Below, piece after piece: positions 11,627-51,614 of a stretch of DNA of 64,000 nt. The position numbers and the translations under genes were made by a program. Position 1 is the first letter of the stretch. Every line of letters begins with the position of its first letter. The notes below the pieces were generated by a model, which saw only the letters and a program-made list of their open reading frames with translations, was not told the origin of the DNA and did not search any database. This DNA comes from a phage, in the sequence record NC_100372.1, one strand, 5' to 3'.

Positions 11627-11857
11627 ATGAGTCATAACTCCAAGTGGAAGGATCTTGGTTTTGCAAGTCGGGCAGAATATGTTGGTTGGCTTTGGTTCAA
11701 TGGCCTGACAAACGATATTAAAATGTATGATGATGTTTATTATGACGAGTATACAGGTAAAATTATAAATATCTCTGTAGAAGAGGATACCTTTACCCAA
11801 CAAGATACTGATACCTGCCTTGATAAATACGTTGATGAAGTGGAGGAAGCAAATTGA
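11627..11857 (+). CDS. Hypothetical protein
   Basis: ATG after AAGGTGGTG RBS. Confidence 0.45.
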   Translation: MSHNSKWKDLGFASRAEYVGWLWFNGLTNDIKMYDDVYYDEYTGKIINISVEEDTFTQQDTDTCLDKYVDEVEEAN

Positions 11858-14169
11858 TCACCAAGGTAATTAAAAGCAACGGATGTGAAGTAGCATTCGA
11901 TCCGGAACGTTTAAATAAGGCAGCTATTTTCGGTGACGACGGTAACGGCAATTGGTCACATATTGCACTTGATGCATACAAACGGCTGTATGATGGATGC
12001 ACAACCAAAGAAGTTAACCAAGCTATTATAGACTCCTGTGTTAGCCGTAAGGACGAAGCACATTCTCGTATGGCTGGTCGTGTTCTTATCGGTCAGATTT
12101 ATAAAGAGGCTTTTGGAGGATTCACAAAGATCCCTTCCTTACCATCATTTTACAATACCATGGTTGATAAAGGGTATTGGGAGGATATGGGCTATAGCTT
12201 TACCGAGTTAAACACTTTAGACACTGTTATTGATCACAGTAAAGACCTTGGTTATGGCTATGCAGTCCTTAAACAGTTTCGAGACAAATACGGGATCAAG
12301 GATACTCTTAAAGACACCCTGTTCGAATCTCCACAGATGATGTTTATGGGGATAGCGATGGCTGTCATGAAAAATATGCCGAAAGAACGCCGTATTGACG
12401 ATGTTGTAAAATTATACACTTATCTGTCAGACTTAAAGATCAATGCCCCGACACCGTACTTAAACGGTCTACGCACAGGCAAGACAGGGTATGCATCTTG
12501 TTGTGTAATAAAAGCTGACGATACAGCAAAATCTATTGGTGTGGCACGTGAAGTTGCATACACAATGACGGTTAACCAAGCAGGTATTGGCTACTATTTA
12601 TCATCAAGATCTGCAGGTGATGGTGTTCGTGGTAACACTATTAAACATATGGGCAAGATTCCATATTATCGAGGTATTGATGCTGGAGTTAAGGAGAACA
12701 GACAACAATCACGTGGCGGTTCTGCAACAGTATCATTCCTTGCACTGGACCCGCAGATTGATGAGCTAATCCGTTTGAGAAACCCTATGACTGTTGCTTC
12801 AAAAAGAATCAACACCATGGACTACTCTATAGGTATTAATAGGTCGTTTATCAACCGTGTGGCTAAGAATTTAGATTGGATGCTTGTTTCTTATAAGCAC
12901 GCTCCTCAACTGCATGAGGGTATCTTCACCATGTCTATGGAGGAGTTTGATGCAGAGGTTGATCGTATCGCTAAAGATGACAGTATTCCTAAAACATGGA
13001 TCCGAGCTAGAGATCTTGCTGTTGAGCTGATCACTCAGCGTACCGAGGTTGGAAGGCTGTACGTATACTGGACAGATGAGATGAATAGACATACACCTTT
13101 TAAAGATGTAATCTATTCAAGTAACCTGTGTGCAGAAATAGCCCTCCCGACAAAAGGCTATTCAGATATGCGTAATATCTTCAAGTACGATGTTGATGAT
13201 GGCGAAGTTGCATTGTGCTTCCTGTCATCTCTTGTAGCCGGAAGGGTTACCCCAGAGGAGTATGAGGATGTTGCATACTACACGGTGCTTATGATTGACA
13301 ATGTTATGGAAATCATGACATATCCGTATGAAAATATGGAGAGCACTGTTAAAAAACGCAGATCCATTGGGGTTGGCCTTACTAATGTTGCACATTTTAT
13401 TGCCAGCCACAAGGTTACTTACGGATCTCCTGAAAGTAAACAGCTTGTTCACGATCTTGCAGAACTTCACAGCTACAGCTTGCATAAGGCAAGTTTACGA
13501 TTGGCAAAAGAGCGTGGTGTCTGTGAGTGGATGCATAAAACAAAATACCCGGAGGGTTGGTTACCAATCGACACCTATAACAAAGAGGTCGATAGTGTGG
13601 TGAAAGATCCTTCTCTTAAGCAGGATTGGGAAGGGTTACGTAAAGAAATCATTGAAAATGGTGGGCTACGTAATAGCGTTCTTGAAGCATATATGCCTAA
13701 TGAAAGCTCTTCGCTGGCAACAAACACCACTAACGGGGTTTATCCTGTCCGTGAACACATTATCTTTAAAAAGTCACCACAAGGGCAGGTGCTGTTTATC
13801 GTTCCTGAATATGATGAACTGAAAGAGTATTATACCTCGGCTTGGGACGTTGATACTAGCGACATGATTGATATGTATGCTGTGATTCAAAAATTCACAG
13901 GACAGGCAATCAGTGCTGACCTATATATTGATTACACCAAGTTGAAAGATGGTAAAATTTCAATGAAAGAGCAGCTGGGGTATCTTATCCGTGCTACTAA
14001 ATTCGGGATGAAGACATGGTATTACTTAAACTCTCGGGTTGGTGCTGGTGACTCTTTGACAGAGGAGCTTCACGCGAAGAAACAGGCTGAAGATGAAACC
14101 AGAAAGAACTATCCTTTGATTGCAGATAGTTCAGTTGAAGATCCGTATTGCGAAAGTTGTGCACTGTAA
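11854..14169 (+). CDS. nrdA: Ribonucleoside-diphosphate reductase large subunit (class Ia)
   Basis: ATP-cone N-terminus (VIKSNGCEVAFD), active-site NLCAEIALP, C-terminal CxxC tail. Confidence 0.95.
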   Translation: MITKVIKSNGCEVAFDPERLNKAAIFGDDGNGNWSHIALDAYKRLYDGCTTKEVNQAIIDSCVSRKDEAHSRMAGRVLIGQIYKEAFGGFTKIPSLPSFYNTMVDKGYWEDMGYSFTELNTLDTVIDHSKDLGYGYAVLKQFRDKYGIKDTLKDTLFESPQMMFMGIAMAVMKNMPKERRIDDVVKLYTYLSDLKINAPTPYLNGLRTGKTGYASCCVIKADDTAKSIGVAREVAYTMTVNQAGIGYYLSSRSAGDGVRGNTIKHMGKIPYYRGIDAGVKENRQQSRGGSATVSFLALDPQIDELIRLRNPMTVASKRINTMDYSIGINRSFINRVAKNLDWMLVSYKHAPQLHEGIFTMSMEEFDAEVDRIAKDDSIPKTWIRARDLAVELITQRTEVGRLYVYWTDEMNRHTPFKDVIYSSNLCAEIALPTKGYSDMRNIFKYDVDDGEVALCFLSSLVAGRVTPEEYEDVAYYTVLMIDNVMEIMTYPYENMESTVKKRRSIGVGLTNVAHFIASHKVTYGSPESKQLVHDLAELHSYSLHKASLRLAKERGVCEWMHKTKYPEGWLPIDTYNKEVDSVVKDPSLKQDWEGLRKEIIENGGLRNSVLEAYMPNESSSLATNTTNGVYPVREHIIFKKSPQGQVLFIVPEYDELKEYYTSAWDVDTSDMIDMYAVIQKFTGQAISADLYIDYTKLKDGKISMKEQLGYLIRATKFGMKTWYYLNSRVGAGDSLTEELHAKKQAEDETRKNYPLIADSSVEDPYCESCAL

Positions 14170-39007: not shown

Positions 39008-39215
39008 GGTTTTAACTCCTATCTATCCGGTTAATGATTGGAGGCCTCACCGCCCCCCCCGACACCCTTTATTATCCATATTGTAGGACTTGATGCAAGT
39101 ACTTCTTTAAAAAATTTTTAAGCGCCTTGGGGCCGCTGTAACGCCAAAATAATAAAGGCCATGCGGGTTGCATAGCCTTTAGATGATTATATCGCTGTAG
39201 GCCCTGCTGGGGGCC

Positions 39216-39566: not shown

Positions 39567-39583
39567 AAAATAACCTGCTGAAA

Positions 39584-39883
39584 CTAGTTTGAGAAAACAT
39601 CGTTCACAATAGCGATCACAATGCCGTTCACCTTGTCACGGTCAACAATGCACAAATCGCCATAGATCATGTGGTAGTCTGGATGATCTTTCACGGAATA
39701 ATCAATGAGTGTTTTCTTATCGTCCAGCTTACTAACTTCCATTCTCATAACGATATGAGAATCATCAAAGGCATTATTCCGAAAAGTCATAACCTGACCG
39801 CCAGGGCACCCGGTGATCTCTACTTCCACGCCGTCTACGATCTGACCATCAAAGAAATAAAGATTATTAGCCTGGATAAACAT
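39584..39883 (-). CDS. Hypothetical protein
   Basis: Start moved to the ATG 8 nt after AAGGAG. Confidence 0.5.
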   Translation of the reverse strand: MFIQANNLYFFDGQIVDGVEVEITGCPGGQVMTFRNNAFDDSHIVMRMEVSKLDDKKTLIDYSVKDHPDYHMIYGDLCIVDRDKVNGIVIAIVNDVFSN

Positions 39884-39974
39884 GATCATTACTCCTTTTT
39901 GCACTGATTATTTTAACAGGGTTTAAATTTACTTTATTGATGGCCCTGGAGTCAAGGCCATCTAAAAATAAATT

Positions 39975-40175
39975 TTACAGGCCTACAATCTCTTTAATTC
40001 GTTTTACTGCTGCCTCAGCGCCTTGAGGGTAAAAATTATGGTAACCAATCACGCGGGTAATACTGATCGCCACTTGATGATCTTCATAATCGCCTTTGAA
40101 GATTTCTTGACCGTCAATCAGCACGGCAATTTTTTCTTCTTTTTTGAAGTTAATAACGCGGATATTGTTGCTCAT
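39975..40175 (-). CDS. Hypothetical protein
   Basis: Start at MSNNIRV after AAAGGAGAAACAAA RBS. Confidence 0.45.
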   Translation of the reverse strand: MSNNIRVINFKKEEKIAVLIDGQEIFKGDYEDHQVAISITRVIGYHNFYPQGAEAAVKRIKEIVGL

Positions 40176-40289
40176 TTTGTTTCTCCTTTCTGGTCTTTGT
40201 GTTGGTGGGGATTGCTCCCCGTTGATTGTTATTATCCATATTTCCGGACCGGATTGCAACACCCTAGAAGAAAAATTTTTGAAAAAGTT

Positions 40290-40312
40290 AAGCCCCCAGG
40301 GATTGGGGGCCG
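40290..40312 (-). terminator. Intrinsic terminator candidate (GCCCCCA-loop-TGGGGGC, U-rich tail on minus strand)
   Basis: Hairpin downstream of the small gene 40316..40435. Confidence 0.4.
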
Positions 40313-40315
40313 TTA

Positions 40316-40435
40316 TCAGTTACTTACAGCGATAAAGTACATCCCTACGCCTAACAATATTTCAAGGGCGATGATCTCAAGCCATACCGTAACACGGCGC
40401 ACCTTATCGGTGCGGGGCTTATCCTTGGGTGTCAT
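40316..40435 (-). CDS. Small membrane peptide (39 aa)
   Basis: AGGAGG...GGGGGAG RBS; hydrophobic C-terminal half. Confidence 0.35.
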   Translation of the reverse strand: MTPKDKPRTDKVRRVTVWLEIIALEILLGVGMYFIAVSN

Positions 40436-40601
40436 CGTCTCCCCCTTTCCTCCTGTTAGCAGTGACGTGGTTTGCAATGGCCCCCAGGAGTATTATCACC
40501 ACGCACATTACAAGAAAAATTATCTCTGTCGTTGTTCGATCCATTGTTATAAAATTCCTTAAGATCAGGCCTGAAAATAAAGCTTTCGTTATTGAATCCA
40601 T
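40419..40601 (-). CDS. Small membrane protein
   Basis: ORF with TM helix. Confidence 0.35.
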   Translation of the reverse strand: MDSITKALFSGLILRNFITMDRTTTEIIFLVMCVVIILLGAIANHVTANRRKGGDDDTQG

Positions 40602-40654
40602 CCCGCCAGGCGGCTGGCTTCAAATCTTCACTAAATGGATTAATTAACGTGGTA

Positions 40655-41026
40655 TTATTTAAACGGCTGGCCCACATATTTTCTATTCCTCTCAAATAAG
40701 CGATCCGCCTCAGTTAAACAAATCTCATGGGCGTGATCTCTGGTTTTAGCTTCATCGAAAACCTGTTGTGCAAGGCTGCAACGTAGGGAGACTGGAAGAT
40801 CACTATAATAGGCGTTGACAAACGTTTGAGCGTCGTACAGGTCTGAAAATACTTTACCCTTTCTATTATTCCCCTTGTCAACAATTGCAAGGATAACCAA
40901 TACAATAGTTGCAACCACTCCCAGGAAGATAGATATAATAAACCATAAAAAGGCGGATCTACCCATCTTGCCAGCGATCCAGGCGTTAAACAAGGCAACT
41001 AATATAGCCAAAATAATAAATTCCAT
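40655..41026 (-). CDS. Membrane protein (two TM helices)
   Basis: Start at MEFIIL after AAAGAGG RBS. Confidence 0.5.
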   Translation of the reverse strand: MEFIILAILVALFNAWIAGKMGRSAFLWFIISIFLGVVATIVLVILAIVDKGNNRKGKVFSDLYDAQTFVNAYYSDLPVSLRCSLAQQVFDEAKTRDHAHEICLTEADRLFERNRKYVGQPFK

Positions 41027-41093
41027 TCTATGTACCTCTTTTACAGTTCTGATTAACAATAAGGCGGCAAATATGCCGCCGCCTGTTACCTGA

Positions 41094-41474
41094 TTAAAAA
41101 TTATCGCCGTAAATCTTTCCGCTTTCTACCCATACCACCACGCGGGGCATACTATCCCACACATCTTGTTTTAGATTGAGCGAGTGCAGTTCTTCGGTGG
41201 TGCTCATACCGGGCACGGGCTGATTGTATACTGCAAAACGACCGCCTGCATAATCATAGGCCAGGGTTAAATCACACTGGATCATCTTTTTGATCATGGC
41301 ATTAAGCATAGCGTTAGCCGCGTACTGATCTCGTTTTAATGGCAACTCTTTAATCAGTTTGCGATAGTTTTCGATATGGTCGCACACTGTTTCACGCGGA
41401 AGATCTTTCATATCTTCACGGAATGTAACCAGGTTAAACATAACGGTGTCAATAGCTTTAGTAGTGTTTTTCAT
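41094..41474 (-). CDS. Hypothetical protein
   Basis: Start at MKNTTK after AAGAGGAAAAC RBS. Confidence 0.5.
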   Translation of the reverse strand: MKNTTKAIDTVMFNLVTFREDMKDLPRETVCDHIENYRKLIKELPLKRDQYAANAMLNAMIKKMIQCDLTLAYDYAGGRFAVYNQPVPGMSTTEELHSLNLKQDVWDSMPRVVVWVESGKIYGDNF

Positions 41475-41565
41475 GATGTTTTCCTCTTTGTTTTGTGGGA
41501 GGCAAGTCATCTCGCCCCCTTGAGTTTTAAATATAGCAGGTTTTTAGATTATTGCAACACTTTAT

Positions 41566-42189
41566 TTATGAAAAACTCATCTCACCATATTCATCCACAT
41601 CAAACCGCCAATCATTGGCTTCAATAAGGCCGATCAGGTTTTCGGTAGTAAACTGTTCAAGATAGGCCTCCTCCAGGTCTACATAAACCTTGCGGGATAG
41701 CTCCCGTACCGTCTCGGTGATCAGCTCTTCCAGGTCTTCCACTTTGTTTTCTTGTTTGGCGGTCAGATCTAGCCAGGTGGTATCAATGTATCCGCTTACA
41801 GTGTTTTCATGGCTGTAATGGCTGTACTTGTCGCGTTCAACACTGGCTGATAACTCGCCATCGTGCATTGTGCCGAACAAGTGACGAATTGATCGGAACT
41901 TGGTCAGGGCCTTTACTTTACGCAAGAATTTTTCTAAATCCACGTTTTCAGCACTGATTGACGCGCCGTCACCCTGGCACCAAAAGCCGGACCAATGTAC
42001 TTCGGTATCTTCAAGGCCGTACTCTGGAAAAACTTGTTCTTTATAATATTCAATTACACTTTCTGCGAAAAAATCCTCTCCGCTGTGTTCTTCTCTTTCG
42101 CGGACCATTTCAATAGCTTTTTCTTTTTGTTCGTCGGTCAGCACGTCGAAAGATAAATTGCAACCTGTGGTAATGTTAACGGTGGTCAT
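41566..42189 (-). CDS. Hypothetical acidic protein (207 aa)
   Basis: Glu/Asp-rich, HWSGFWCQGDGASI segment; no confident family assignment. Confidence 0.55.
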   Translation of the reverse strand: MTTVNITTGCNLSFDVLTDEQKEKAIEMVREREEHSGEDFFAESVIEYYKEQVFPEYGLEDTEVHWSGFWCQGDGASISAENVDLEKFLRKVKALTKFRSIRHLFGTMHDGELSASVERDKYSHYSHENTVSGYIDTTWLDLTAKQENKVEDLEELITETVRELSRKVYVDLEEAYLEQFTTENLIGLIEANDWRFDVDEYGEMSFS

Positions 42190-42263
42190 GATATTTTCTC
42201 CTGTTTTCTTTATTAGTGGCGGGAAGTTTTCCCGCCTGTGTGTTTAATTATACTTATTGAGAT

Positions 42264-42524
42264 TTACTTGTCAACACTATTTTTTAAATTATTGTGGCGT
42301 AAAATGTTCAAGATCTCTTCAACGTCATCAACACGGCGGTAATTTTTAAACGCTACCAATTGCCCCATGATTTTAATCACTGGGCGGCCTTGCCAGTGCC
42401 CCTGGAGAAAGCGCGCCTTGACTTTATCGGTGGAGCTATCACGCCACCAAATGGCCTTGTTGTTGCAGTAGTAAAAATTATTCAGGACAACATCAACCTT
42501 ATCAAAATTTTTTAATTTACGCAT
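42264..42524 (-). CDS. Hypothetical protein
   Basis: ORF with upstream promoter. Confidence 0.5.
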   Translation of the reverse strand: MRKLKNFDKVDVVLNNFYYCNNKAIWWRDSSTDKVKARFLQGHWQGRPVIKIMGQLVAFKNYRRVDDVEEILNILRHNNLKNSVDK

Positions 42525-42556
42525 GGCGTTTACTCCTTTCTCTCTTTGATGTGGTT

Positions 42557-42584
42557 AGTATAGCTAACCTGTTTAAGATGTCAA
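42557..42584 (-). promoter_or_regulatory. Sigma70-like promoter on minus strand (TTGACA-16-TATACT)
   Basis: Reverse complement of 42557-42584. Confidence 0.45.
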
Positions 42585-42730
42585 GCTTTAAATAAAATCA
42601 CTGTCAATAATATTTTTAACGCCATAAAACGGCCCTGGGCGATGTTTTCAGGTTAAGAAAGGCGATTGCATAGGTGGGGGCCTTTTCGGCGCTTACAGGG
42701 CCAACCAGGGGCGCTATTCGTAGGATAGAA

Positions 42731-42757
42731 ATAAAAAGCCCCGCACAATGGCGGGGC
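42731..42757 (-). terminator. Intrinsic terminator (GCCCCGC-loop-GCGGGGC with TTTTTATTT on minus strand)
   Basis: Strong hairpin plus U-run immediately after gene 42766..42963. Confidence 0.65.
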
Positions 42758-42765
42758 GTTGGTTG

Positions 42766-42963
42766 TTATTTGTCTTTATGGCGGTATCGTTCTGCCTGTC
42801 GTTCACGTTCCAAAAGTAGGCCAGGCAATTTACGATCATAATGATTTCGCCAGATCTTTCCAAATCTTTTTGGCTTATTTAGTTTATTGTTACGCTGGCG
42901 GCGTTCCGGCAGCTCTTCGGAATCATGAGATCGCTTTACAATCTTCTCAAAATTAATCTTCAT
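42766..42963 (-). CDS. Hypothetical basic protein
   Basis: Start at MKINFEK after AGGGGG RBS. Confidence 0.45.
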   Translation of the reverse strand: MKINFEKIVKRSHDSEELPERRQRNNKLNKPKRFGKIWRNHYDRKLPGLLLERERQAERYRHKDK

Positions 42964-43306
42964 ATATTCCCCCCTTGCTAACTTCAATATTTGCCTGAAT
43001 AGCCCGGATACGGCGCTTTATAACTTCCTGGTCTGTGTGATCGTATCCCCAAAAGTCTACAATTTTTGCGCCCCCCGCCTCCAGGCGGTATAGTGTTTCC
43101 TGCATCTTGTAAGCCGGGACCGGTCGCGGTGTTACTTGGTCACCTTCTTTATTTTTATACTTTATAATATAATCTTCGTTATCGTTGAATGCCCAAAATG
43201 GATATTTTGCAAGGGCGTTGCTTTCTTTTTCGTTCTTAGATTGGATCTTGTTTACAATTAAAGCCGTAGCAATAGCGCCGATAATAAAACTTGCACCGCT
43301 GATCAT
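42953..43306 (-). CDS. Membrane-anchored protein
   Basis: Start at MISGAS after GAAAGGAGAA RBS; N-terminal TM helix. Confidence 0.5.
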   Translation of the reverse strand: MISGASFIIGAIATALIVNKIQSKNEKESNALAKYPFWAFNDNEDYIIKYKNKEGDQVTPRPVPAYKMQETLYRLEAGGAKIVDFWGYDHTDQEVIKRRIRAIQANIEVSKGGIYED

Positions 43307-43381
43307 GTTACTTTCTCCTTTCATGGTGTTAATAAATTATCTTTATAGATGGCCCTGCAGCCAGGACCACCGAAAAAATAA

Positions 43382-43627
43382 CTATTTCACAATGCCCACA
43401 AAACAGATCCCGCCTTCCCCGACGTAGGCAATATCGGTCACTTTGTAGTCGGTTAAGATCTGTTTATTCAGATCATTAATAAAATCGGTCATTGCGTTGG
43501 TGTAGTTGTCTTCCATGTCTAGGGAATAATCCCAGGTGTAAACCTTTTTACGTCCGAAGCCTTTAACAACAACACGGGCACCTTTGGTGTTGGTTGGTGC
43601 ATAGTATTTAGTGATTAGTGCTGCCAT
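43382..43627 (-). CDS. Hypothetical protein
   Basis: ORF. Confidence 0.5.
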   Translation of the reverse strand: MAALITKYYAPTNTKGARVVVKGFGRKKVYTWDYSLDMEDNYTNAMTDFINDLNKQILTDYKVTDIAYVGEGGICFVGIVK

Positions 43628-43716
43628 GGTTTTAACTCCTCTGTATTAGTTCAGTGTTAACAGTGTAAAGTTTACTTTATTGATGGCCCTGGAGTCAAGG
43701 CCATCTAAAAATAAAC

Positions 43717-44121
43717 TTAGTAAGTTTTCAGTACTTTACCGTCCAACCTGTCAAGCTGGATCTCGATAGCTGCAGAAAACCTATTGTACACCACGTCGCC
43801 CATGGAATCCAACCAGTCTATGACGTTATACACCTGCTCTTTGTTCTTGCAGGTCCGGATCCGTTTCATGATGTAAGCCGGATCAATATTGGTACTTTCG
43901 TTGGTGTTCCCCTGTACCTGATTTGCCGTATTAGTTACATCTTTAATGGCCTTTACCACCACCTGGAAGGGCTTTAAGGTGCCTTTTGCGTTCATCTCAC
44001 GCGCTTTTGCGGCGCGGTTGTTATATGTTACACAACGGCGGCAAATGTTCACCAAATGCATGTCAATAATTTTTTCATCGTTTGCCAGTTCGTTCATGAT
44101 GCGGCGTACGTTCTTATTCAT
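43717..44121 (-). CDS. Hypothetical protein
   Basis: ORF. Confidence 0.5.
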   Translation of the reverse strand: MNKNVRRIMNELANDEKIIDMHLVNICRRCVTYNNRAAKAREMNAKGTLKPFQVVVKAIKDVTNTANQVQGNTNESTNIDPAYIMKRIRTCKNKEQVYNVIDWLDSMGDVVYNRFSAAIEIQLDRLDGKVLKTY

Positions 44122-44140
44122 GATCTTTTTCCTTTGTGTT

Positions 44141-44165
44141 GGCGGGAAACATTCCCGCCTTTTGT
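44141..44165 (+). other. Hairpin GGCGGGAA-ACAT-TTCCCGCC with T-run on the plus strand only
   Basis: Sits in the 5-prime leader of a minus-strand gene; near-identical hairpin at about 42203-42222. Confidence 0.4.
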
Positions 44166-44203
44166 GACTAGTTTACTTGAATTTTGCAGCGTGTCAACAA
44201 TTT

Positions 44204-44602
44204 TTATTCGTGGGCGCATGTTACAATGTGCTTTTTATAGCCCAGGTGGTTAGCAAGTGCCGACAAAAACTCTTCTTCATAGATCCAGCCGTTGGCAGTG
44301 ATCCCCATAGCATTTAATGCGCTCTCAAGTGCTGCATTAGCTTTATCGTAACCGTGACCGCTCGCCTTCCCGCCAGTATAACCGTACTTATTGTTCTTGT
44401 TGTCGTGAATCCAAAAAACGCAGTATTGAGTGTTCCCGCTGGCGGCGGCATAATACCGGATCTCAGCTACTTCGTGCAAATTATTGTCATCGTCCAGGCC
44501 CACCAGATTATAAGCCTTGTAAAATCCACGATCACGGCGGCAGTTCTTGACATCAGAAAAAGAAAAGTCCGCATTATCAAAATTAAAGGTAGTGGTTTTC
44601 AT
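44204..44602 (-). CDS. Hypothetical protein
   Basis: ORF. Confidence 0.5.
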   Translation of the reverse strand: MKTTTFNFDNADFSFSDVKNCRRDRGFYKAYNLVGLDDDNNLHEVAEIRYYAAASGNTQYCVFWIHDNKNNKYGYTGGKASGHGYDKANAALESALNAMGITANGWIYEEEFLSALANHLGYKKHIVTCAHE

Positions 44603-44947: not shown

Positions 44948-45121
44948 TTAGTTAGAATTATTTTTTGGGCAGAATTCTCCAGCCGCCGCCCCTGCCAGGT
45001 TAACCATCATTTTTTCGTACTCTTCTTTATGTTCCAACGCTCCCGCCATAGCCTTTTCAACCAGGGCGATAGCCTCAGCGTCATTAATCGCTACATTTCC
45101 AGGGATCCTATTACCTTTCAT
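44948..45121 (-). CDS. Small protein (57 aa), below the ORF-track size cutoff
   Basis: Hand-translated MKGNRIPGNVAINDAEAIALVEKAMAGALEHKEEYEKMMVNLAGAAAGEFCPKNNSN with GAGGAGG RBS. Confidence 0.4.
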   Translation of the reverse strand: MKGNRIPGNVAINDAEAIALVEKAMAGALEHKEEYEKMMVNLAGAAAGEFCPKNNSN

Positions 45122-45327
45122 TTTTGTACCTCCTCTTCAATTGTTACCTGCCCTGTAGCATAGGCCTACCAGGTTTGCAAGCTTTCACTCTCTCCTACCT
45201 GGTCAGTCAGGTCCTGCCAGGCTGGCCCCGCCAGGTTGCAGCGGTTGGTGTATTATGTTAGAAAAAATTTTTGAAGAAGTGTTGACAGCGGCCCCGCCAG
45301 GTGGCACAATATACCTATCGAAAGGAC

Positions 45328-45398
45328 GGCAGGCACCGGTGACGGGGGAGACAACCACCGGGGATGGGCGCTGCATAAAATGAGAACGGTTATCATTA
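45328..45398 (+). repeat. Conserved module copy 1: GC-rich element (GGCAGGCACC..GGGAGACAACCACCGGGG) followed by GAGAACGGTTATCATT
   Basis: Read directly; a second copy lies 135 bp downstream and a third element in reverse orientation at 37633. Confidence 0.6.
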
Positions 45399-45460
45399 TC
45401 ATTTAAAAATTTATGCAAAAAATCCTTGCTTTCTTTGTCCTGTGTGATACTATAATAACA

Positions 45461-45533
45461 AGCCGGGGCAACAGGGGCCGGGAGACAATCACCGGGGGTG
45501 CCCGTTATTCTGCAAACGAGAATGATTATCATT
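45461..45533 (+). repeat. Conserved module copy 2: GGGAGACAATCACCGGGGGTGCC followed by GAGAATGATTATCATT
   Basis: 21-bp core identical to the reverse complement of 37641-37661. Confidence 0.6.
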
Positions 45534-45663
45534 CAAAATTCTAAATGAGAACTTTTCGCATTTCATAAATTTAGTTAGCATGCTAATTACCTACCGTGAC
45601 AATTCTATATAAAATAATACCTCCTTAAATATTTCCATATACAAATTTTAAAAATCCATTTCC

Positions 45664-45830
45664 GAAAACGAAAAATCGATTTCGTCCCCAAAAATTTCAG
45701 GTCGAGCTCCGGAACGATTTCCAGAAAATCTGATTCAGAAAACGAAAAACAGATCGAGTACTAAGAAATTTATCGAGAAAAATTTTCAGAAAATTCAATC
45801 TTTGAAACGAAAAACAGATCGAGTACTGAG
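45664..45830. repeat. Three degenerate tandem repeats (about 70 bp) with core GAAAACGAAAAACAGATCGAGTACT
   Basis: Cores at about 45664, 45738, 45804. Confidence 0.55.
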
Positions 45831-46138
45831 AGAGATGTATCAAAACCTGCTGAGAATAATGGGTTTATTGTTATAAAGGGTCAAAGGTAAGCTGGGAAAG
45901 TTCCGGTAGAAGGGTGAGAGTATGTGCGGAAAATCTGGAATAGTAACTTAAAGTACGGTGCGAACGATAGAATGAGCAGCACATCTTATCGCGCCTGTCT
46001 TGAAAAATCCATTTTAGTTTTCGATCCATTTTCTGATTTTCTAAGAATTTTAAAATATCCGGCTAGGTAAAATATCAAAAGGAGGAAATCCATTTTAGAA
46101 ATCCTCCTTATACTTGATGTGCCAGGGATTTTCAAGTA

Positions 46139-46468
46139 TCAACTGTCTTTGTTTTTAGGCTTGTGCATACGTAGAGGTATGGTCTTTATAACATTCCATC
46201 TGCCCAACCCCTCCCAGTTCCAATTGTGAGCGTGATACCCAGTTATGCATGCACTGCTGGCGTGATCATAAGCATAAGAGAACGCTATGCGAACCAGGTG
46301 GGGCCAGTCCCTCCACGGCTGTGGACCGTAAGCCTTTCTCCAACACCGACACAAACTAATTGTCTCAAGAATAGGTAGAATAACAAATCCATATACCGCC
46401 ACCAAAATGGTAAGAGCAATGATTGTCAGGAATACATACCCTGCAGTTGAAATAATGATCTCTGTCAT
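46139..46468 (-). CDS. Membrane protein
   Basis: N-terminal TM helices. Confidence 0.5.
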   Translation of the reverse strand: MTEIIISTAGYVFLTIIALTILVAVYGFVILPILETISLCRCWRKAYGPQPWRDWPHLVRIAFSYAYDHASSACITGYHAHNWNWEGLGRWNVIKTIPLRMHKPKNKDS

Positions 46469-46668
46469 TTGTCATCCCCTTTCTTACGGATATAGATGTG
46501 AGAGCCTGCTTGTACATAAATTTCCCGACCATCTTCTGCAAAGATGTGGAATACACGGTCGCCTTCGTATTCAATACGGGATATCTTCATAACGGTCTTC
46601 CCACCCGGAATGCGGATCTCATCACCCACAGCAATGTTCCATGCAGATTTAAGCTTAAACATCTGCAC
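46465..46668 (-). CDS. Hypothetical protein
   Basis: Coupled ORF. Confidence 0.45.
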   Translation of the reverse strand: MQMFKLKSAWNIAVGDEIRIPGGKTVMKISRIEYEGDRVFHIFAEDGREIYVQAGSHIYIRKKGDDK

Positions 46669-46900
46669 CCCCCTTTGGGAGCTCTAACTCTGGCATAGCC
46701 ATATACGCCACGACAGGGTTGTAATCAAAGTAGAAATGACCGTTAATTATCCCAGTTTTGTGGGCATAGTCACCAGATCCTGCAAGAACAATCTCGCAAA
46801 CTCCGAAATCCACCTCGCCATTCTCATCTGCCATGGCTACAATATACTTTCCTAGAGGCATGTTTTTAACGCCGTCTACAAATGTCCACCCTTTGTTCAT
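46655..46900 (-). CDS. Hypothetical protein
   Basis: ORF. Confidence 0.5.
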   Translation of the reverse strand: MNKGWTFVDGVKNMPLGKYIVAMADENGEVDFGVCEIVLAGSGDYAHKTGIINGHFYFDYNPVVAYMAMPELELPKGGADV

Positions 46901-46920
46901 ACTTTATCTCCTGCACTTTC

Positions 46921-47253
46921 TTAAGGTAACCAGTAAACAATTTCGCCTTTCAGTTCCATGTCGTTACCGACATAGATTTTCCAGCCATCCATTTTAGCCA
47001 CTGCAGGAGTGAAGCCCGTAGAACCACTAACCTCTTTCCAAGTCCCGTAGTCAGGTTGCCAGATATAGAATCCACCTCCCTTGTCCCATGCTCCATATAC
47101 CACATCGAGCAGGTTGCCCATTGCAACAATAGTAGGCCGTGGGAATAATACATCTACAGATGCGCCACAATTTCGGGTAGATTTTAAATTACAATCCCAA
47201 AAGATGTCTGCCAGTGTGGCGGCGATAGCTTTACGTCTTTCTAATGTTACCAT
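46921..47253 (-). CDS. Hypothetical protein
   Basis: ORF. Confidence 0.5.
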   Translation of the reverse strand: MVTLERRKAIAATLADIFWDCNLKSTRNCGASVDVLFPRPTIVAMGNLLDVVYGAWDKGGGFYIWQPDYGTWKEVSGSTGFTPAVAKMDGWKIYVGNDMELKGEIVYWLP

Positions 47254-47263
47254 GGCACGATAC

Positions 47264-47455
47264 TCACTTGTTGTTAAGAAGTTCTAAAACTTTCTGTTTT
47301 ACTTTATCAAGGTCTGTTGATTCAAAAATTGTGCGATATCCCCAACTTTGCCCATAGGAATAACTGCAATCCCCGTAACACCATTGCTCAACTTGATAGT
47401 ATTCAAGGAATGGGTGCTGTCTGACTATGATACCGTCTCGATTAAAAATTACCAT
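47264..47455 (-). CDS. Hypothetical protein
   Basis: ORF. Confidence 0.45.
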   Translation of the reverse strand: MVIFNRDGIIVRQHPFLEYYQVEQWCYGDCSYSYGQSWGYRTIFESTDLDKVKQKVLELLNNK

Positions 47456-47518
47456 AATTTATCCCTCTCTGCTAGTCTATGTTTGTATTATATACTGCAG
47501 TTTTCAGATGTCAACCTT

Positions 47519-47713
47519 TTACAGGTTACTCCAGTATAATCGGCATTTACACTTCGGGCAATGAGGTTCTTTTATGTAATAACCATCAGTCTTTGGAACA
47601 CTTTTTGGTGCAGTTTTAAGATTGTACCGAGTAAAGCACCGGAAGCAGGTTACCTCTCCTACCTGTTGATCGTTTATCCACTCACCAGAGTAAAGCTCTT
47701 TCTTGTTTCTCAT
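47519..47713 (-). CDS. Small zinc-ribbon protein
   Basis: CFRCF...CPKCKC; start at MRNKK after GGGGAGAG RBS. Confidence 0.45.
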   Translation of the reverse strand: MRNKKELYSGEWINDQQVGEVTCFRCFTRYNLKTAPKSVPKTDGYYIKEPHCPKCKCRLYWSNL

Positions 47714-47738
47714 AATTCTCTCCCCAATCCTCTGCAAT

Positions 47739-47910
47739 CTTATACCAGAATCTCCAGCCAGAAAGCACACGGGAACACTTTGAGGATTGAATCTTTACTA
47801 GGCTCGGAAGTTCTTTTTCCGTAGGGCAGGTAGAAATACCCTCCTGCAGATTCAAACATGGCTCCTTCTGTTGTATCTATCACAGCTAGAATTAAGATTT
47901 TAGTCTCCAT
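47739..47910 (-). CDS. Small protein (56 aa), below the ORF-track cutoff
   Basis: Hand-translated METKILILAVIDTTEGAMFESAGGYFYLPYGKRTSEPSKDSILKVFPCAFWLEILV with AGGGGAG RBS. Confidence 0.35.
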
Positions 47911-47964
47911 AGTGCTCCCCTGTCTTAATCGTTGTGGTGACTATACCACCTTAAAATATAGCTG

Positions 47965-48423
47965 TCAACACTCTTTGTACTCCACCACGATAATATCTAT
48001 ATCAAAAGTGGCAAGGTTAATAATGTCCTCTACATGTTCCCACTTCAAACCGCCTATGCCGCACCCGATCTTAGGGATGTAGAATGGTAAAATCGACCCC
48101 TCAAATACTTCATTGACTCGCTCAAAGCCTTTCAGTATTGAGAAATATTCAGCATTAGGCCCTGGGTAGAACTGAGTATACAGATTTATTCCGTAGACAA
48201 TACCTCTCGGAGATAAGTGCTCCCAGCGGGAGAACGCGCCCAGTTTACTTAGGCAACCGTGCATAGTCATTTTATCAGCTTCCAATGCTTGAGGGAACTC
48301 ACGGGCAATCTGTTTTGCTACACCCTTACCCATTGTGTGGAAGCAGTTACAACCGTGGATCAGGTGACCATCACCGCTCTTAAAAAGGGAGATTAAATCT
48401 CCCTCTACAGTATCAATAATCAC
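47965..48423 (-). CDS. Macro-domain protein (ADP-ribose binding/hydrolase-like)
   Basis: HGCNCFHTMGKGVAKQI resembles the macro-domain glycine-rich ADP-ribose pocket; C-terminal IPKIGCGIGGL resembles the second conserved loop; start placed at GTG after GAGGAG RBS. Confidence 0.5.
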   Translation of the reverse strand: MIIDTVEGDLISLFKSGDGHLIHGCNCFHTMGKGVAKQIAREFPQALEADKMTMHGCLSKLGAFSRWEHLSPRGIVYGINLYTQFYPGPNAEYFSILKGFERVNEVFEGSILPFYIPKIGCGIGGLKWEHVEDIINLATFDIDIIVVEYKEC

Positions 48424-48838
48424 GATATTCCAGCTCCTCTTCCACAATTTCAAAAAACTCAGTCCAGCACTGTGGCATATTGGAGTTACCGAAGTGGCTT
48501 TCATAGTAAAGGTTTTTACCGCTCGGAAGATAGAAATCTGTTACCTCATAAAATCCACAATCGTCGCACTCTCCCTCTTCAAACTTGGCCTTAACCTTAA
48601 TGCCGAGGAAGGTGAAAAGTTTATGGATATCTTCGGTCTCGAACTCCCAATTAATGTTGTTTTCCGCATCGGTGTAAAACTGGATCAGTAGGCCATCATC
48701 CATTTTTCCAAAATATTCTGTGAAGTAGCTTCCTTCCCAGAAGTCTTTGTGACAAATAATATCCATGCGCTTGCCCATAATAAAGGTGTGGGCGTTTCGT
48801 GCATCGTCACGAATCAGTTTTGGCATTTCATAAATCAT
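48413..48838 (-). CDS. Hypothetical acidic protein
   Basis: ORF. Confidence 0.5.
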   Translation of the reverse strand: MIYEMPKLIRDDARNAHTFIMGKRMDIICHKDFWEGSYFTEYFGKMDDGLLIQFYTDAENNINWEFETEDIHKLFTFLGIKVKAKFEEGECDDCGFYEVTDFYLPSGKNLYYESHFGNSNMPQCWTEFFEIVEEELEYRDY

Positions 48839-48903
48839 CGTAGTTCTCCAGGATCAATAGGTGGTGCTACAGGAAGATCATAAAACATGGCGATCACATT
48901 CTC

Positions 48904-49101
48904 TTACGCAGGAATTGCTTCAAACAGGCCGTTATCGATACCATCCTTCAAGTAAAGATTATACTCTATGTCAGTATCTGTGTAAAGGGCAGCATCTAGC
49001 ATTCTATCTGTGAGTCCATCCATTGGGTGGAGAAACCACCACCCACGCCAGTCAAAGTAACAACCTGGTGCATCTTCTCTCACACGGATTCGATAAATCA
49101 T
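48904..49101 (-). CDS. Hypothetical protein
   Basis: AGGAGG RBS. Confidence 0.45.
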   Translation of the reverse strand: MIYRIRVREDAPGCYFDWRGWWFLHPMDGLTDRMLDAALYTDTDIEYNLYLKDGIDNGLFEAIPA

Positions 49102-49170
49102 GGGCAGTGGCCTCCTGTTAGTTACACATCCCAGTTTTCTTCGTTCATCACATCCTCCAGCTCAACAAGG

Positions 49171-49202
49171 TTATAATTGCACACCTTACAACCCGTGTCA
49201 AC
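49171..49202 (-). promoter_or_regulatory. Sigma70-like promoter on minus strand (TTGACA-17-AATTAT)
   Basis: Perfect -35, 4/6 -10. Confidence 0.35.
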
Positions 49203-49614
49203 AGAAAACTTCAACAAATTCTTCCACAGTTTTAATGTCATGGGAAAAAGGTTTGCGGCTATAACGGGCAATAGCACTGTCAACCACCGCCCGGTACTCC
49301 AAATCTTCAGAATATTTCATGAAGCATTGCAACGTCTCTGGACAGATAGCCAGATAGCTCCACCACCCCTCTTCAGATTGGTAGTCAAATCCCATACTCT
49401 CTAGCCACGAAGCGTATACACCTGCACCTTCCAGCCAGTGAGTATTTTCATCAAGAAACTTGTTCACAGTCATGTGAGCTTCTAAGCATTTATCCAGCTC
49501 TTTTCCGTTAACCAGCCACGCACTGACAGTGGCGCATCCAAGATCCACAGATTGAGCTGATAGATTGTATTGGTCATAGTTCTCAGGTTTAACAATGATA
49601 TCTTCTAATGTCAT
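49198..49614 (-). CDS. Hypothetical protein
   Basis: ORF. Confidence 0.5.
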   Translation of the reverse strand: MTLEDIIVKPENYDQYNLSAQSVDLGCATVSAWLVNGKELDKCLEAHMTVNKFLDENTHWLEGAGVYASWLESMGFDYQSEEGWWSYLAICPETLQCFMKYSEDLEYRAVVDSAIARYSRKPFSHDIKTVEEFVEVFC

Positions 49615-49631
49615 TTTTCAGTCCTCTATAT

Positions 49632-49660
49632 ACAAAAATGCCCCACCCTTTCGGGTAGGG
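49632..49660 (-). terminator. Intrinsic terminator with GAAA tetraloop (GCCCUACCC-GAAA-GGGUGGGGC + U-run)
   Basis: 9-bp stem with one G-U pair, followed on the minus strand by ATTTTT; downstream of the SSB-like gene. Confidence 0.65.
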
Positions 49661-49676
49661 CTATGTTAACTAGATG

Positions 49677-50903
49677 TTAAAAAGGTATGTCATCATCAAA
49701 GGCGTACTGTGCCGGATTCTGATCCATCGGGTCGTCTTCCGCATCATCTACAGGAGGAGCGTCTACAGTGTTTTGCTGTGGGGCGGCTTCCTGTTTGGCA
49801 GCTTGAGGCTCTTGATGGTCAGTGGCTCCAGCACCGTTCTTGATCCAATCATACAACGGTTCAGCAAGATTAGTCAAGACATCTTTTGCCTCTGCAGTAA
49901 TTGCTACTGCAAAATCATCAACTTTCGTTTTCTTGTCAATACGGCGACAAGCGTTCAATACCGCATTACCAACACTGGCACCTACTTCATCTTCAGTTCG
50001 GTTAGTGGCTTGAGCGTACTCTTTCTTAAGCTCGATGGTGACCACGTGCAGTGTTTTAGCCACATCTAAAGGGCTGTCAATCTTAAACCCGCGATCCAGG
50101 ATGATCTGCAATGCATTGATACTGTGCCCTGTCTCTACACCGATGGGGTCGTAAGAGGATTTACGCTTACCACCAGAACCTTGTGTACCGTTCTCTGCTT
50201 TAGGCGGGTAGGCCTTGAAGCCGCTGATAATATTCCCGGTGTCTTTGTCAACAATAGCTGCAACACGACCACCTACCACCAGGTCTTTAAGCTGCTCATC
50301 AGAGACAACCATAGCACCTTCACCAATCTTGTGATCATTGACAGTAACCACGTTGCCAACAATCTGAGTCACATCGCCATAGATGCGTAAAACGTCCTGA
50401 TTGGCATTCTGCTGAGGTTTCTGCTTCTGGCCTTGTGATTGTGCACCTTGTTGCTGTTTTTGCTGCTGAGTCGCTGCTGGAGCCTCTCCTGCACCCAGCT
50501 TGACCATCTTAGCCAGGGAGCCTTTGTAATAGGTCTTACCGTTATGCTCGTTTGCCTTCAAAGGGATATTTACGATCCATCCTGGCGTTACAGTTTCCCA
50601 CTTGTCATCAATTTTAACAGAGACAGAGTCTTGATGACCCGGTTTAAGCAGCTTATCACCCATACTGATCCAAACTTCTTCACCACCTTGAAGCAGGTTA
50701 TCAGAGGAATCCAGTTCAGAAATCAGTAAAGAGATGGTGTGGCTGGATTCAATTTTCTTACCTTGCCACACAGTGGTTTTAATACCTGTTGTAGGATCAG
50801 CACCTTTGATAGGCTTGATGCTGACACGTTTAATCATGCCGTGAGCCAGTAAAACAGTTTCACGCGGATTCATCGGGTTAGCGAATTGTTGAATAACGCT
50901 CAT
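49677..50903 (-). CDS. Single-stranded DNA-binding protein-like (long form)
   Basis: C-terminal acidic tail ending DDDIPF, as in bacterial SSB; Gln/Gly-rich linker. Confidence 0.55.
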   Translation of the reverse strand: MSVIQQFANPMNPRETVLLAHGMIKRVSIKPIKGADPTTGIKTTVWQGKKIESSHTISLLISELDSSDNLLQGGEEVWISMGDKLLKPGHQDSVSVKIDDKWETVTPGWIVNIPLKANEHNGKTYYKGSLAKMVKLGAGEAPAATQQQKQQQGAQSQGQKQKPQQNANQDVLRIYGDVTQIVGNVVTVNDHKIGEGAMVVSDEQLKDLVVGGRVAAIVDKDTGNIISGFKAYPPKAENGTQGSGGKRKSSYDPIGVETGHSINALQIILDRGFKIDSPLDVAKTLHVVTIELKKEYAQATNRTEDEVGASVGNAVLNACRRIDKKTKVDDFAVAITAEAKDVLTNLAEPLYDWIKNGAGATDHQEPQAAKQEAAPQQNTVDAPPVDDAEDDPMDQNPAQYAFDDDIPF

Positions 50904-51379
50904 TATTTATCTCCTTGTTCTTCGTTAGTGTTTGCCGTGTGTGCAAACCCTGCTTGAATTAATTTGTCCTGAACTTGAGCCAACAGGCCCATTGCAAAAC
51001 TTGTGGTCCCAGAGAGGGCCATCAGCATATCTCGTTGTTGAGCTACCCAACCTAAGGCATAGTCCAAACGACGATATTTTTCTTCTTCACGCAGAGCCTG
51101 GAATAATTGTTCAGCCTCTGGCTGTTGTGTAAGCTCCTGAAGTCTTCCCATGAAAGAAGAAAGCACTAGCAGAAGAGACACTTGATCTTTACTTAACCCT
51201 AAGAAAAATTCTTGAGGTTGTTCTTGCTCGTTCATCGCAACCGACGCTTGATCGTTCATTTGTTCCATTATGGAATCTCCGATTTTATTTGAACAACATA
51301 GAAGGAGACACCATTTTAGCATCTCCTTCTGCAAATTACAACAGGTATTTGTTAGCCAATTACTTCGAAAGTACCCCAA
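50903..51379 (-). CDS. Hypothetical protein
   Basis: Coupled ORF. Confidence 0.5.
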   Translation of the reverse strand: MGYFRSNWLTNTCCNLQKEMLKWCLLLCCSNKIGDSIMEQMNDQASVAMNEQEQPQEFFLGLSKDQVSLLLVLSSFMGRLQELTQQPEAEQLFQALREEEKYRRLDYALGWVAQQRDMLMALSGTTSFAMGLLAQVQDKLIQAGFAHTANTNEEQGDK

Positions 51380-51597
51380 CTCCCGTTCAGCAGGCAGGTG
51401 ATCGGATCACCATCATCGTCAATTATTTCAAAGTTTTCAACATCCAGAATATGGTCATCGAACACAATGCTCTTATCGCCACCACCAGAAATAACAGCGT
51501 ATTCCTTACCTTGTGTTAGGTTCTGGCAACCTTTGCCGCCGAAACCAACTTCAACACAACGTACTTTCTGTCCTGCGCGAGCAACTACTCCAGCCAT
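51352..51597 (-). CDS. Hypothetical protein
   Basis: ORF. Confidence 0.45.
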   Translation of the reverse strand: MAGVVARAGQKVRCVEVGFGGKGCQNLTQGKEYAVISGGGDKSIVFDDHILDVENFEIIDDDGDPITCLLNGSWGTFEVIG

Positions 51598-51614
51598 CTT
51601 AAGGTCTCCTGATA

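Follow-up and report, generated by a model that had tools for sequence, protein, structure and literature searches.

Replication origins of the T7 and T4 type are characterized by promoters aimed into an adjacent AT-rich segment, and iteron origins by at least three co-oriented direct repeats beside such a segment. For the Vequintavirus rV5, the replication origin has never been mapped (PMC3606486). For Fur, the host iron regulator, the literature searched records binding sites (boxes) in phage DNA in just two settings: Qin and DLP12, two cryptic prophages, have them ahead of nohA/nohB (PMC2189734, Table 4), and lambdoid phages have them ahead of a cargo operon, sitABCD (PMC6969025). Here we describe a region of about 1 kb, positions 45122-46138 (hereafter the control region), in a 64-kb window (the whole stretch of 64,000 nucleotides that was analysed, from sequence record NC_100372.1) which belongs to the genome of a Vequintavirus (rV5-like) coliphage. 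Both kinds of origin anatomy are found in it: the predicted promoters P1 and P2 (the counterpart of the latter in other genera is called PB) are aimed into an AT-rich segment at 45601-45660, with predicted Fur boxes intervening, and three co-oriented direct repeats lie beside that segment. The control region appears to be an essential cis-acting non-coding element of rV5-like phages, and we put forward, as our leading though tentative reading, that it could be a transcription-activated replication origin gated by the host Fur. In the literature searched, no description of the control region was found, and nothing relevant on an rV5 origin or an rV5 transcriptome.

The comparative work was based on GenBank phage records. 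The control region and the surrounding 20 kb share 93-98% identity with the Escherichia phages ECP2303, B9-1 and NHEP1, and about 88-90% with rV5. The region is bordered by the minus-strand open reading frames (ORFs) 44948..45121 on the left and 46139..46468 on the right, and all of its neighbouring genes are on the minus strand. Six Vequintavirus genomes were aligned across it, and identities are given as mean pairwise values (Table 1). Three conserved blocks are 93-96% identical, the variable spacers 72-74% and the flanking genes 90-95%; as read from this alignment, selection is acting on the DNA sequence of the control region itself. The left spacer (45122-45281) contains GC-rich GGCCCCGCCAGGT-type repeats at 45210-45240, a poly-A/T tract whose length depends on the genome, and several indels, including a deletion of 29 nt in HMD-6. 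In the variable spacer (45832-45995) no conserved element was found, and its ORFs are broken by indels in rV5, NHEP1 and HMD-6.

The evidence for essentiality comes from a saturated Himar1 transposon library of Bas54 (= MZ501093, MaxBurger), a Vequintavirus, reported in the HIDEN-SEQ preprint (10.1101/2025.11.20.689424), of which we used the per-ORF figures. Bas54 is 85% identical to the window across the control region. In the alignment of the two, the TA counts of the ORFs (14, 15, 11 and 3) equal the values in the supplement, and therefore the ORF mapping is confirmed. The ORF lying over the AT-rich segment received no insertion at all and the one lying over the promoters and Fur boxes only a few, with low read counts (Table 1). 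The neighbours 0099 and 0103-0109 tolerate insertions (10.1101/2025.11.20.689424) and, since these include the downstream genes, polarity cannot explain the lethality. The authors of the preprint do not discuss these ORFs (10.1101/2025.11.20.689424).

The first-pass annotation of the window had called the region gene-free and had suggested a switch or an origin, an interpretation that would fall if the region encoded a protein in relatives or lacked conservation. Comparative genomics found neither. The region is indeed gene-free: small ORFs are present, but they are inconsistently annotated, differing from one GenBank record to another, and their homologous frames carry stops and length changes that are not multiples of three. 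The longest, 45203..45532 on the minus strand (109 amino acids, aa), is interrupted by two in-frame stops in MiataMamis, and its C-terminus is frameshifted in four of the six genomes; its ATG falls within a Fur box and lacks a ribosome-binding site. The remaining ORFs are disrupted by indels of 1-2 nt in the six-genome alignment, and the frame of bas54_0101 is without an ATG start in the window and has a stop in HMD-6. Between 45560 and 45860, no frame with a conserved start stays open in all aligned genomes and, in the other genera, no ORF is kept at these positions, though the DNA motifs are kept. A Pfam search of the ORFs flanking the control region and of those inside it returned no domain. 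It could still be argued that small essential proteins are encoded here, as in GenBank (rV5 gp193/gp194; bas54_0100 to 0102), given that ORFs of 30-119 aa are annotated in many records, that the 109-aa ORF matches phrog_14993, and that HIDEN-SEQ lists bas54_0101 as an essential gene. Against the stops, frameshifts and indels in the homologous frames, the start codon inside a Fur box, the bas54_0101 frame as it stands in the window and HMD-6, and the conservation in other genera of DNA motifs rather than of any ORF, we regard this as highly improbable. On the same comparisons, the PHROG matches in the control region are best read as reflecting nucleotide conservation among close relatives only, and the region itself as non-coding. 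The Bas54 insertion data and the coding analysis together are the reason for considering the locus an essential cis-acting element.

Table 1. Features of the control region and its flanks (window positions; promoters, hairpins and Fur boxes are predictions; identity is the mean pairwise value among six Vequintavirus genomes; insertion figures are from 10.1101/2025.11.20.689424).
Feature	Position	Strand	Identity	Details
Left flanking gene, 65 aa	44667-44864		95.2%	
Left spacer	45122-45281		73.7%	
Promoter/hairpin/Fur block	45282-45580		95.5%	
Promoter P1	45282..45310	+		TTGACA, 17-nt spacer, CACAAT, TG upstream
Module 1, GC-/purine-rich nested hairpin	45329..45374	+		conserved loop GAGACAACCACCG; paralogue of module 2
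Fur boxes 1a, 1b	45379..45403			centres 45388, 45394 (overlapping, 6 bp apart); 24.0, 15.7 bits
Promoter P2	45426..45453	+		TTGCTT, 16-nt spacer, TACTAT, preceded by TGa (extended -10)
Module 2, nested GC-rich hairpin	45466..45503	+		loop GAGACAATCACCG; conserved in other genera
Fur boxes 2, 3	45515..45562			centres 45524, 45553 (29 bp apart); 25.9, 16.7 bits
Perfect 12-bp palindrome TTAGCATGCTAA	45575..45586			intact in 5/6 Vequintavirus genomes, broken in MiataMamis
Palindrome/AT-rich segment	45581-45650		85.7%	
AT-rich candidate DNA-unwinding element	45587..45660			from duplex stability and A+T content
Three iteron-like repeats	45651..45831	+	94.0%	U1 45651-45724, U2 45725-45789, U3 45790-45831
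Second, weaker terminator-like hairpin	45695-45658	-		within repeat unit 1
Variable spacer	45832-45995		71.8%	
Right motif block	45996..46138		92.7%	AAATCCATTT 46005, 46086; shorter copy ATCCATTTT 46024; AAATATC 46053, 46070
Terminator-like hairpin	46069..46107	-		GGAGGA/UCCUCC stem, then UUUUGAUAUUUU; just downstream of gene 46139..46468
Right flanking gene, 109 aa	46139-46468		90.2%	
bas54_0102	45258-45532			5/15 TA sites hit, low read counts; Strong fitness defect
bas54_0101	45587-45691			0/11 TA sites hit; Essential
bas54_0100	45697-45843			1/3 TA sites hit; not classified
bas54_0099	right flank			18/21 TA sites hit; Non-essential
bas54_0103	left flank			12/14 TA sites hit; Intermediate
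bas54_0104	left flank			13/13 TA sites hit; Non-essential
bas54_0105	left flank			25/25 TA sites hit; Non-essential

Outside Vequintavirus, BLAST aligns only the stretch from about 45465 to 45573 (module 2 and its Fur boxes), with matches from six further genera. Homologous gene-free regions were read in Seunavirus, Mydovirus, Certrevirus and Henunavirus, and also in Phapecoctavirus, which is from another subfamily. All seven genera examined, across two subfamilies, show one and the same order of elements: on the strand opposite to the flanking genes, one or more sigma-70 promoters are followed by a GC-rich nested hairpin (loop GAGACAAnCACCG), a 7-1-7 palindrome array TGAGAATnATTCTCA, three long AT-rich repeats and, finally, clusters of short motifs. 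In scans of sequence collections, the module-2 core was found in only two viral contigs and a combined pattern in no metagenome contig.

The first conserved block (45282-45580) consists of a promoter/hairpin/Fur-box cassette duplicated in tandem with a period of 136 bp and oriented against the flanking genes. These are the conserved modules that the first-pass annotation had pointed out; the two modules are real, but what had gone unrecognised is that they carry putative operators for the host Fur. P1 matches 10 of the 12 consensus positions in the promoter scan and is nearly invariant across the six genomes, with changes solely in the -10 hexamer of two of them. P2 scores under the threshold of that scan and was found by reading the sequence; its hexamers are unchanged in the six genomes, only spacer positions varying (in three), and its counterpart PB is conserved in other genera as TTGATC/TTGCAA, 17 nt and TATTAT/TATATT. 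Both predicted transcripts would begin with purine-rich leaders, of composition G25 C15 A15 T4 for P1 and G20 C14 A11 T6 for P2. Module 1 has a minimum free energy of -21.9 kcal/mol (z = -1.9), and the plus strand of module 2 folds just slightly better than the minus strand. The outer stem and the inner stem closing the conserved loop are predicted in 11 of 12 sequence variants despite the sequence change, and the loop is almost invariant while the surrounding stems vary. As RNA structures, the module hairpins are predictions with weak thermodynamic and covariation support.

To score Fur boxes, a symmetric matrix was built from 14 footprinted or gel-shifted sites of E. coli K-12, with centres taken from Chen et al. 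2007 (PMC2189734) and mapped on NC_000913.3. The mapped training sites read AATGATAATnATTATCATT-like, and proven E. coli sites obtain 17.9-28.1 bits in leave-one-out scoring, with a mean of 21.9. On 46 kb of E. coli DNA, the matrix recovered the held-out sites nohB (26.2) and fepB (16.2), the sole other site above 14 bits being the 6-bp-offset neighbour of the entC training site. The phage boxes have the 19-bp 9-1-9 form AATGAnAATnATTnTCATT, and those centred at 45524 and 45388 score in the upper half of the proven sites. E. coli Fur sites typically come in overlapping clusters, offset by 6 bp (or 3 bp). In the control region, offsets of 6 bp occur at 45388/45394 and at 45524/45530 (the second partner of the latter pair scoring 9.8 bits), and the main array is spaced by 29 bp. 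Sites reaching 14 bits number 9 in the window and 0.77 in shuffled sequences, and the best 8 in the 64 kb all fall within two gene-free hubs, namely the control region and a second, larger gene-free region (hereafter the large hub) with Fur boxes at 34597-34731. All 14 relatives examined carry one to four Fur sites, mostly of 20-29 bits, and a centre spacing of 29 bp is seen in most of the arrays. We found no report in the literature searched of Fur boxes in Vequintavirinae or Stephanstirmvirinae, nor of conserved Fur operators in any virulent phage. A minus-strand promoter beneath the Fur boxes, which would give the classic repression geometry, was considered and set aside: the only candidate is weak (ATGAAA-17-TAGAAT, 45566-45538) and is not conserved outside Vequintavirus.

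The four boxes of the large hub, at 34597, 34615, 34713 and 34731, score 16.0, 14.9, 19.0 and 20.1 bits and form two pairs, 18 bp apart within each. Of the 19 positions of the fecI Fur site of E. coli, TATGAGAATGGTTATCATT, 17 are matched by the large-hub site TGTGAGAATGGTTATCATT. Judging from the sequences, what the two hubs share is the Fur boxes and not the RNA module. In addition, a Fur-box 18-mer, ATGAGAATGATTMTCATT, was found in at least 120 IMG/VR viral contigs, nearly all unrelated to rV5-like phages (within L010-L129), and in two to three copies in some of them (L012, L034, L037, L041). Fur boxes may occur widely among viral contigs, though some of these matches are probably due to chance.

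Such boxes could also act by number. In the FURTA assay, one Fur box on a multicopy plasmid is enough to titrate Fur, and the multiplying phage genomes might likewise soak up the host Fur, derepressing iron uptake and the iron-sparing response to the benefit of the iron-dependent ribonucleotide reductases, the other elements of the region being unrelated. The seven or eight high-scoring boxes per genome in the two hubs, the maintenance of the arrays in all relatives, and the class I and class III reductases encoded by the phage (from the Bas54 annotation; in the window, ORF 11854..14169 is as long as expected for NrdA) would be in line with such a decoy. As the function of the locus, however, we consider it quite unlikely: it leaves unexplained the promoters, the hairpins, the three repeats and the fixed order of the elements, as well as the lethality in rich medium of insertions in a segment outside the Fur boxes, and a decoy could work without being fixed in place behind a promoter. 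Titration of Fur by hundreds of genome copies is nevertheless a likely side effect.

Downstream of the Fur array, the near-palindrome mentioned in the first-pass annotation turned out to be the perfect 12-bp palindrome of Table 1, likewise a feature exceeding chance expectation, and it is followed by the AT-rich segment. The stretch 45601-45660 is the least stable 60-bp duplex in the 64 kb (at 100 bp it comes second to a site in the large hub), and 45600-45649 has 82% A+T. This segment free of insertions varies in sequence, lies between conserved blocks and faces two promoters, and for these reasons we regard it as having the signature of an unwinding element.

Three repeat units of roughly 70 bp had been noticed at 45660-45830; they were confirmed, with starts at 45651, 45725 and 45790, and are commoner than expected by chance. 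The unit starts are 74 and 65 bp apart, and each unit combines a short dyad with the core ACGAAAAAcaGATCGAGTACT, while the spacers contain AnTn tracts. The sequence GAAAACGAAAAACAGATCGAGTACT is found exactly at 45738-45762 and with two mismatches at 45803-45827, and not at all in shuffles. Unit 1 is degenerate, with 72% identity to unit 2, and units 2 and 3 are 78% identical. Tandem Repeats Finder detects just a 12-bp fragment, the units being too diverged and irregularly spaced for a classical tandem array. In five phages of other Vequintavirinae genera (GAP31, CR3, BIS47, SSE121 and Hena1), there are again exactly three units, of 39-67 nt, spaced by 63-69 and then 74-78 bp, and in Hena1 the core is altered in all three copies together. 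Such concerted, iteron-like evolution, as far as can be judged from the sequences compared, implies a co-evolving binding protein. Since PhiTE, a related phage, carries a pseudo-ToxI, a type III antitoxin (ToxI-like) repeat RNA was also considered. ToxI-like repeats are contiguous, of about 34-45 nt, and are followed by a terminator and a toxin gene; here the units are 62-74 nt, the spacing is irregular, a variable spacer follows and there is no toxin gene, and the candidate was rejected.

The motif AAATCCATTT, which had been placed at 45652, 46006 and 46089, was found at 45652, 46005 and 46086. In the whole window there are four copies against 0.34 expected, a number that no shuffle reached, the fourth being an unrelated copy at 59187. 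Two of them belong to the right motif block, and in other genera analogous clusters of AAAyCCATTTC and AAATATC lie at the same end of the region. The third AAATCCATTTT sits within the terminator-like hairpin at 46069..46107, which has a minimum free energy of -16.7 kcal/mol (z = -3.35). The region is thus bounded by minus-strand terminator-like hairpins, and therefore marks a boundary between two minus-strand transcription units.

Bent AnTn tracts and phased repeats in an essential cis element might also point to a DNA-level site of another kind: one where packaging initiates (pac), one that signals entry or an injection stop, or one used for anchoring or partition. The records of EC152, ETEC-TG and 'Campylobacter phage' C2 begin or end within about 2 kb of it. 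However, an end in the vicinity is seen in four of the 60 listed records, where about two would be expected by chance, which is not significant, the terminase genes are about 80 kb away (in Bas54 coordinates), and the promoters and Fur operators would have no obvious role in packaging. We therefore hold such a site to be improbable.

Our tentative reading of the locus as a Fur-gated, transcription-activated origin would bring these parts together as follows. The tandem host sigma-70 promoters P1 and P2 would fire on the plus strand, opposing the flanking genes, and each would yield a purine-/G-rich leader able to form a hairpin. Each transcript would then have to traverse the Fur operator array, where it could be gated or stalled by Fur, and those getting through would enter the least stable DNA (45590-45660), opening the duplex or priming synthesis as an R-loop. 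The three phased repeats of 65-74 bp, with their bent AnTn tracts, and the AAATCCATTT block would assemble the co-evolving DNA-binding protein, which is probably phage-encoded, and the T7-like helicase (DnaB-type) and family-A polymerase of the phage would take over. The genes 8-17 kb to the right include those for a DnaB-type helicase, a family-A polymerase-like protein and a PIF1 helicase. Given a T7-like replisome, and with no origin mapped so far in rV5, we favour the transcription-activated type. That the promoters are active, that Fur binds, that an R-loop forms and that the origin fires are steps that we infer from sequence. The first-pass annotation had proposed a regulatory switch or an origin; of this, the non-coding nature, the conservation, the position at a minus-strand boundary, the origin-like anatomy and a core that cannot be disrupted in Bas54 are borne out, while origin activity remains putative.

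Several observations weigh against an origin at this place. No DnaA boxes (with at most one mismatch) occur in 45122-46138 and GATC is not enriched there, and no initiator (Rep) gene is evident beside the region. GC skew has no sign change of the origin type at the control region, and the shift in skew magnitude at 45-46 kb is opposite to the expectation for a bidirectional origin: the GC and AT skews are about -0.07 and about -0.15 over roughly 36000-44500, and about -0.15 and about -0.05 over roughly 46000-54000, with all genes on the minus strand. P2 matches the consensus weakly in this phage, the hairpin z-scores (-0.8 to -3.2) are mostly not significant, and RNAalifold on a MAFFT alignment of module 2 gave only a 3-bp stem and the Fur-box palindrome instead of the nested stems. 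The Fur boxes lie at +64 to +100 from the predicted P1 and P2 starts and do not overlap the promoters, which is atypical for Fur repression. To our knowledge, no role of Fur in replication is known. Moreover, the T4 and T7 origins are individually dispensable, unlike this element. Finally, insertions in Bas54 are likewise missing from the 2-kb large hub (10.1101/2025.11.20.689424), so this hub could be the origin instead. As to the geometry of the boxes, a few real Fur sites (fecA, fepD-entS) are also found downstream of their promoters (Chen et al., PMC2189734). In rV5, skew changes only where the direction of transcription changes (PMC3606486), and in the window the plus strand of 45300-45950 is purine-rich, opposite to its surroundings. 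The suggestion of a "second" origin, also made in the first-pass annotation, finds no support, as the control region and the large hub both appear indispensable in Bas54, which speaks against two redundant origins.

The same promoters and boxes could instead form an iron-responsive transcriptional switch or a non-coding RNA locus with no origin function. P1 and P2 would then make short regulatory RNAs, with the conserved GAGACAAnCACCG loop as seed, or RNAs antisense to the upstream minus-strand genes; downstream Fur would be a roadblock setting transcript length, the repeats would bind a phage regulator, and lethality would result from misregulation of early or middle genes. The conserved promoters and Fur boxes, the nearly invariant loop amid variable stems, the terminator-like hairpins at the boundary of two transcription units, and the strongly deleterious insertions in the promoter/Fur part of Bas54 all agree with such a locus, as do an RNA element (RNA-A) and a CpxR-like box in the same region of other genera (see below), which suggest a hub of host-regulated promoters. 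On the other hand, the strictly insertion-free AT-rich segment varies in sequence, as would suit a physical property of the DNA more than it would an operator or an RNA; the statistics for an RNA structure are weak and there is no Rfam match; essentiality in rich medium is unexpected for an iron switch; and every neighbouring gene that the switch could control is dispensable in Bas54. This alternative seems to us rather unlikely. The origin reading can also be stated in a fuller form, namely that Fur-dimer arrays with 29-bp phasing gate or organise a transcription-primed origin of rV5-like and phAPEC8-like phages, that iron licenses replication directly, with a possible input from envelope stress through a CpxR-like box in other genera, and that bas54_0101 and bas54_0102 are a DNA element. 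Taken as a whole, this proposal is doubtful.

In other genera, the homologous regions contain elements that the window does not. Outside Vequintavirus, the region opens with a small plus-strand gene with its own promoter (L003:1569-1760; L002:1575-1841), identified as DUF7170 in GAP31 and as phrog_19316 in Phapecoctavirus; it alone among the genes shares the orientation of the non-coding promoters, and the window lacks it. RNA-A is a conserved element of about 90 nt (ACGCCACCCCACGGCG..AAAGGCGGGGCUAAC..hairpin..GGAAGGUGGAUCGCCGGUAG) behind its own sigma-70 promoter, found in Seunavirus, Mydovirus, Certrevirus, Henunavirus and Phapecoctavirus (L003:1817-1908, L005:1316-1407, L006:1336-1429, L007:1149-1242 and 1340-1428, L008:1329-1411, L002:1882-1971). 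Some GC-to-AU covariation is seen in it, as is a potential pseudoknot in which CCCC/GGGG becomes CCAA/TTGG, and it has no Rfam match. In the window RNA-A is absent, and the P1/module-1 cassette occupies its place. The motif GTAAA-N5-GTAAA, which is the consensus of the envelope-stress regulator CpxR, occurs exactly once, just upstream of the PB -35, in 12 of 13 relatives outside Vequintavirus (for instance L003:1919-1933, L004:1429-1443, L005:1418-1432, L006:1440-1454 and L009:1482-1496), and nowhere in the 64-kb window. In Seunavirus, a third plus-strand promoter (TTGACA, extended -10 TGaGAAAAT) lies between the Fur array and the repeats (L003:2093-2125, L006:1587-1620), and in its spacer purines alternate with pyrimidines (CGCGTGTGCGTGTGTG), so that Z-DNA could form there; in Vequintavirus this position holds the TTAGCATGCTAA palindrome.

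Within the window, the 57-aa ORF 44948-45121 (minus strand) at the left border matches phrog_21957, yet it is frameshifted or interrupted in rV5, NHEP1 and HMD-6. Possibly it is no gene, and the non-coding stretch would then reach the promoter at 44944. A 51-nt intergenic element is present in three copies among the early genes (39925-39975, 43334-43384 and 43668-43718), each with the dyad GATGGCCCTGGAGTCAAGGCCATC bordered by A/T runs, and is probably a repeated terminator/promoter module. A scan for tRNA and tmRNA genes found none. Rfam 15 scans of the window, the control region and five related loci (by gathering threshold and by E-value) gave no match, the only sub-threshold hit having an E-value of 0.92.

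The rV5-like phages are broad-host-range candidates for therapy and biocontrol. The analysis delimits a stretch of 600 bp as a candidate essential cis element, and recasts as non-coding DNA two ORFs that were scored 'Essential' and 'Strong fitness defect' in a recent screen. It also indicates that strictly virulent phages of two subfamilies conserve top-quality predicted operators for the host iron regulator. If Fur does bind them, phage development would be tied to iron availability, a link of importance where iron is scarce, as it is in the gut, in plants and in infected tissue, and the replicating phage would also titrate Fur.

Among known systems, the primary origin of T7 (phi1.1A, phi1.1B and an AT-rich segment) resembles the control region in having tandem promoters directed into an easily melted segment, together with a T7-like replisome (PMC3606486). 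Unlike in T7, the promoters here are of the host sigma-70 type, Fur operators and G-rich hairpins intervene, and there are three long repeats; and the T7 primary origin can be bypassed, whereas the phage element appears indispensable. Origins that use R-loops (T4 oriF/oriG, ColE1 RNA II, mitochondrial LSP/CSB) likewise have a promoter upstream of an unwinding element and a G-/purine-rich structured transcript, a feature which would favour a persistent RNA-DNA hybrid. They differ from the control region in that here promoter and unwinding element are about 140 nt apart and the R-loop is only proposed, and in that the T4 origins are redundant. We know of no R-loop origin system that carries Fur operators. 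With the iteron origins (lambda ori, P1 oriR, theta plasmids), the locus shares co-oriented repeats beside an AT-rich segment, bent DNA and concerted evolution, but its units are 62-74 bp instead of 17-22 bp and only three in number, DnaA boxes are lacking and no adjacent initiator gene was identified. P4, with ori and crr, offers a likeness in having two separate non-coding regions that are both apparently needed. The boxes themselves are like the E. coli Fur operators (fecI, ryhB, gpmA, entC; PMC2189734) in their 19-bp form, their scores and one pair offset by 6 bp, and unlike them in being carried by a virulent phage, in lying downstream of the promoters and not over the -35/-10 elements, in forming 29-bp arrays, and in being predicted only. 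The nohA/nohB and sitABCD cases are also strong Fur sites in phage-derived DNA; those are single sites, on temperate or cryptic phages and mostly at cargo genes, whereas the predicted boxes described here form conserved arrays in apparently essential non-coding regions of strictly virulent phages.

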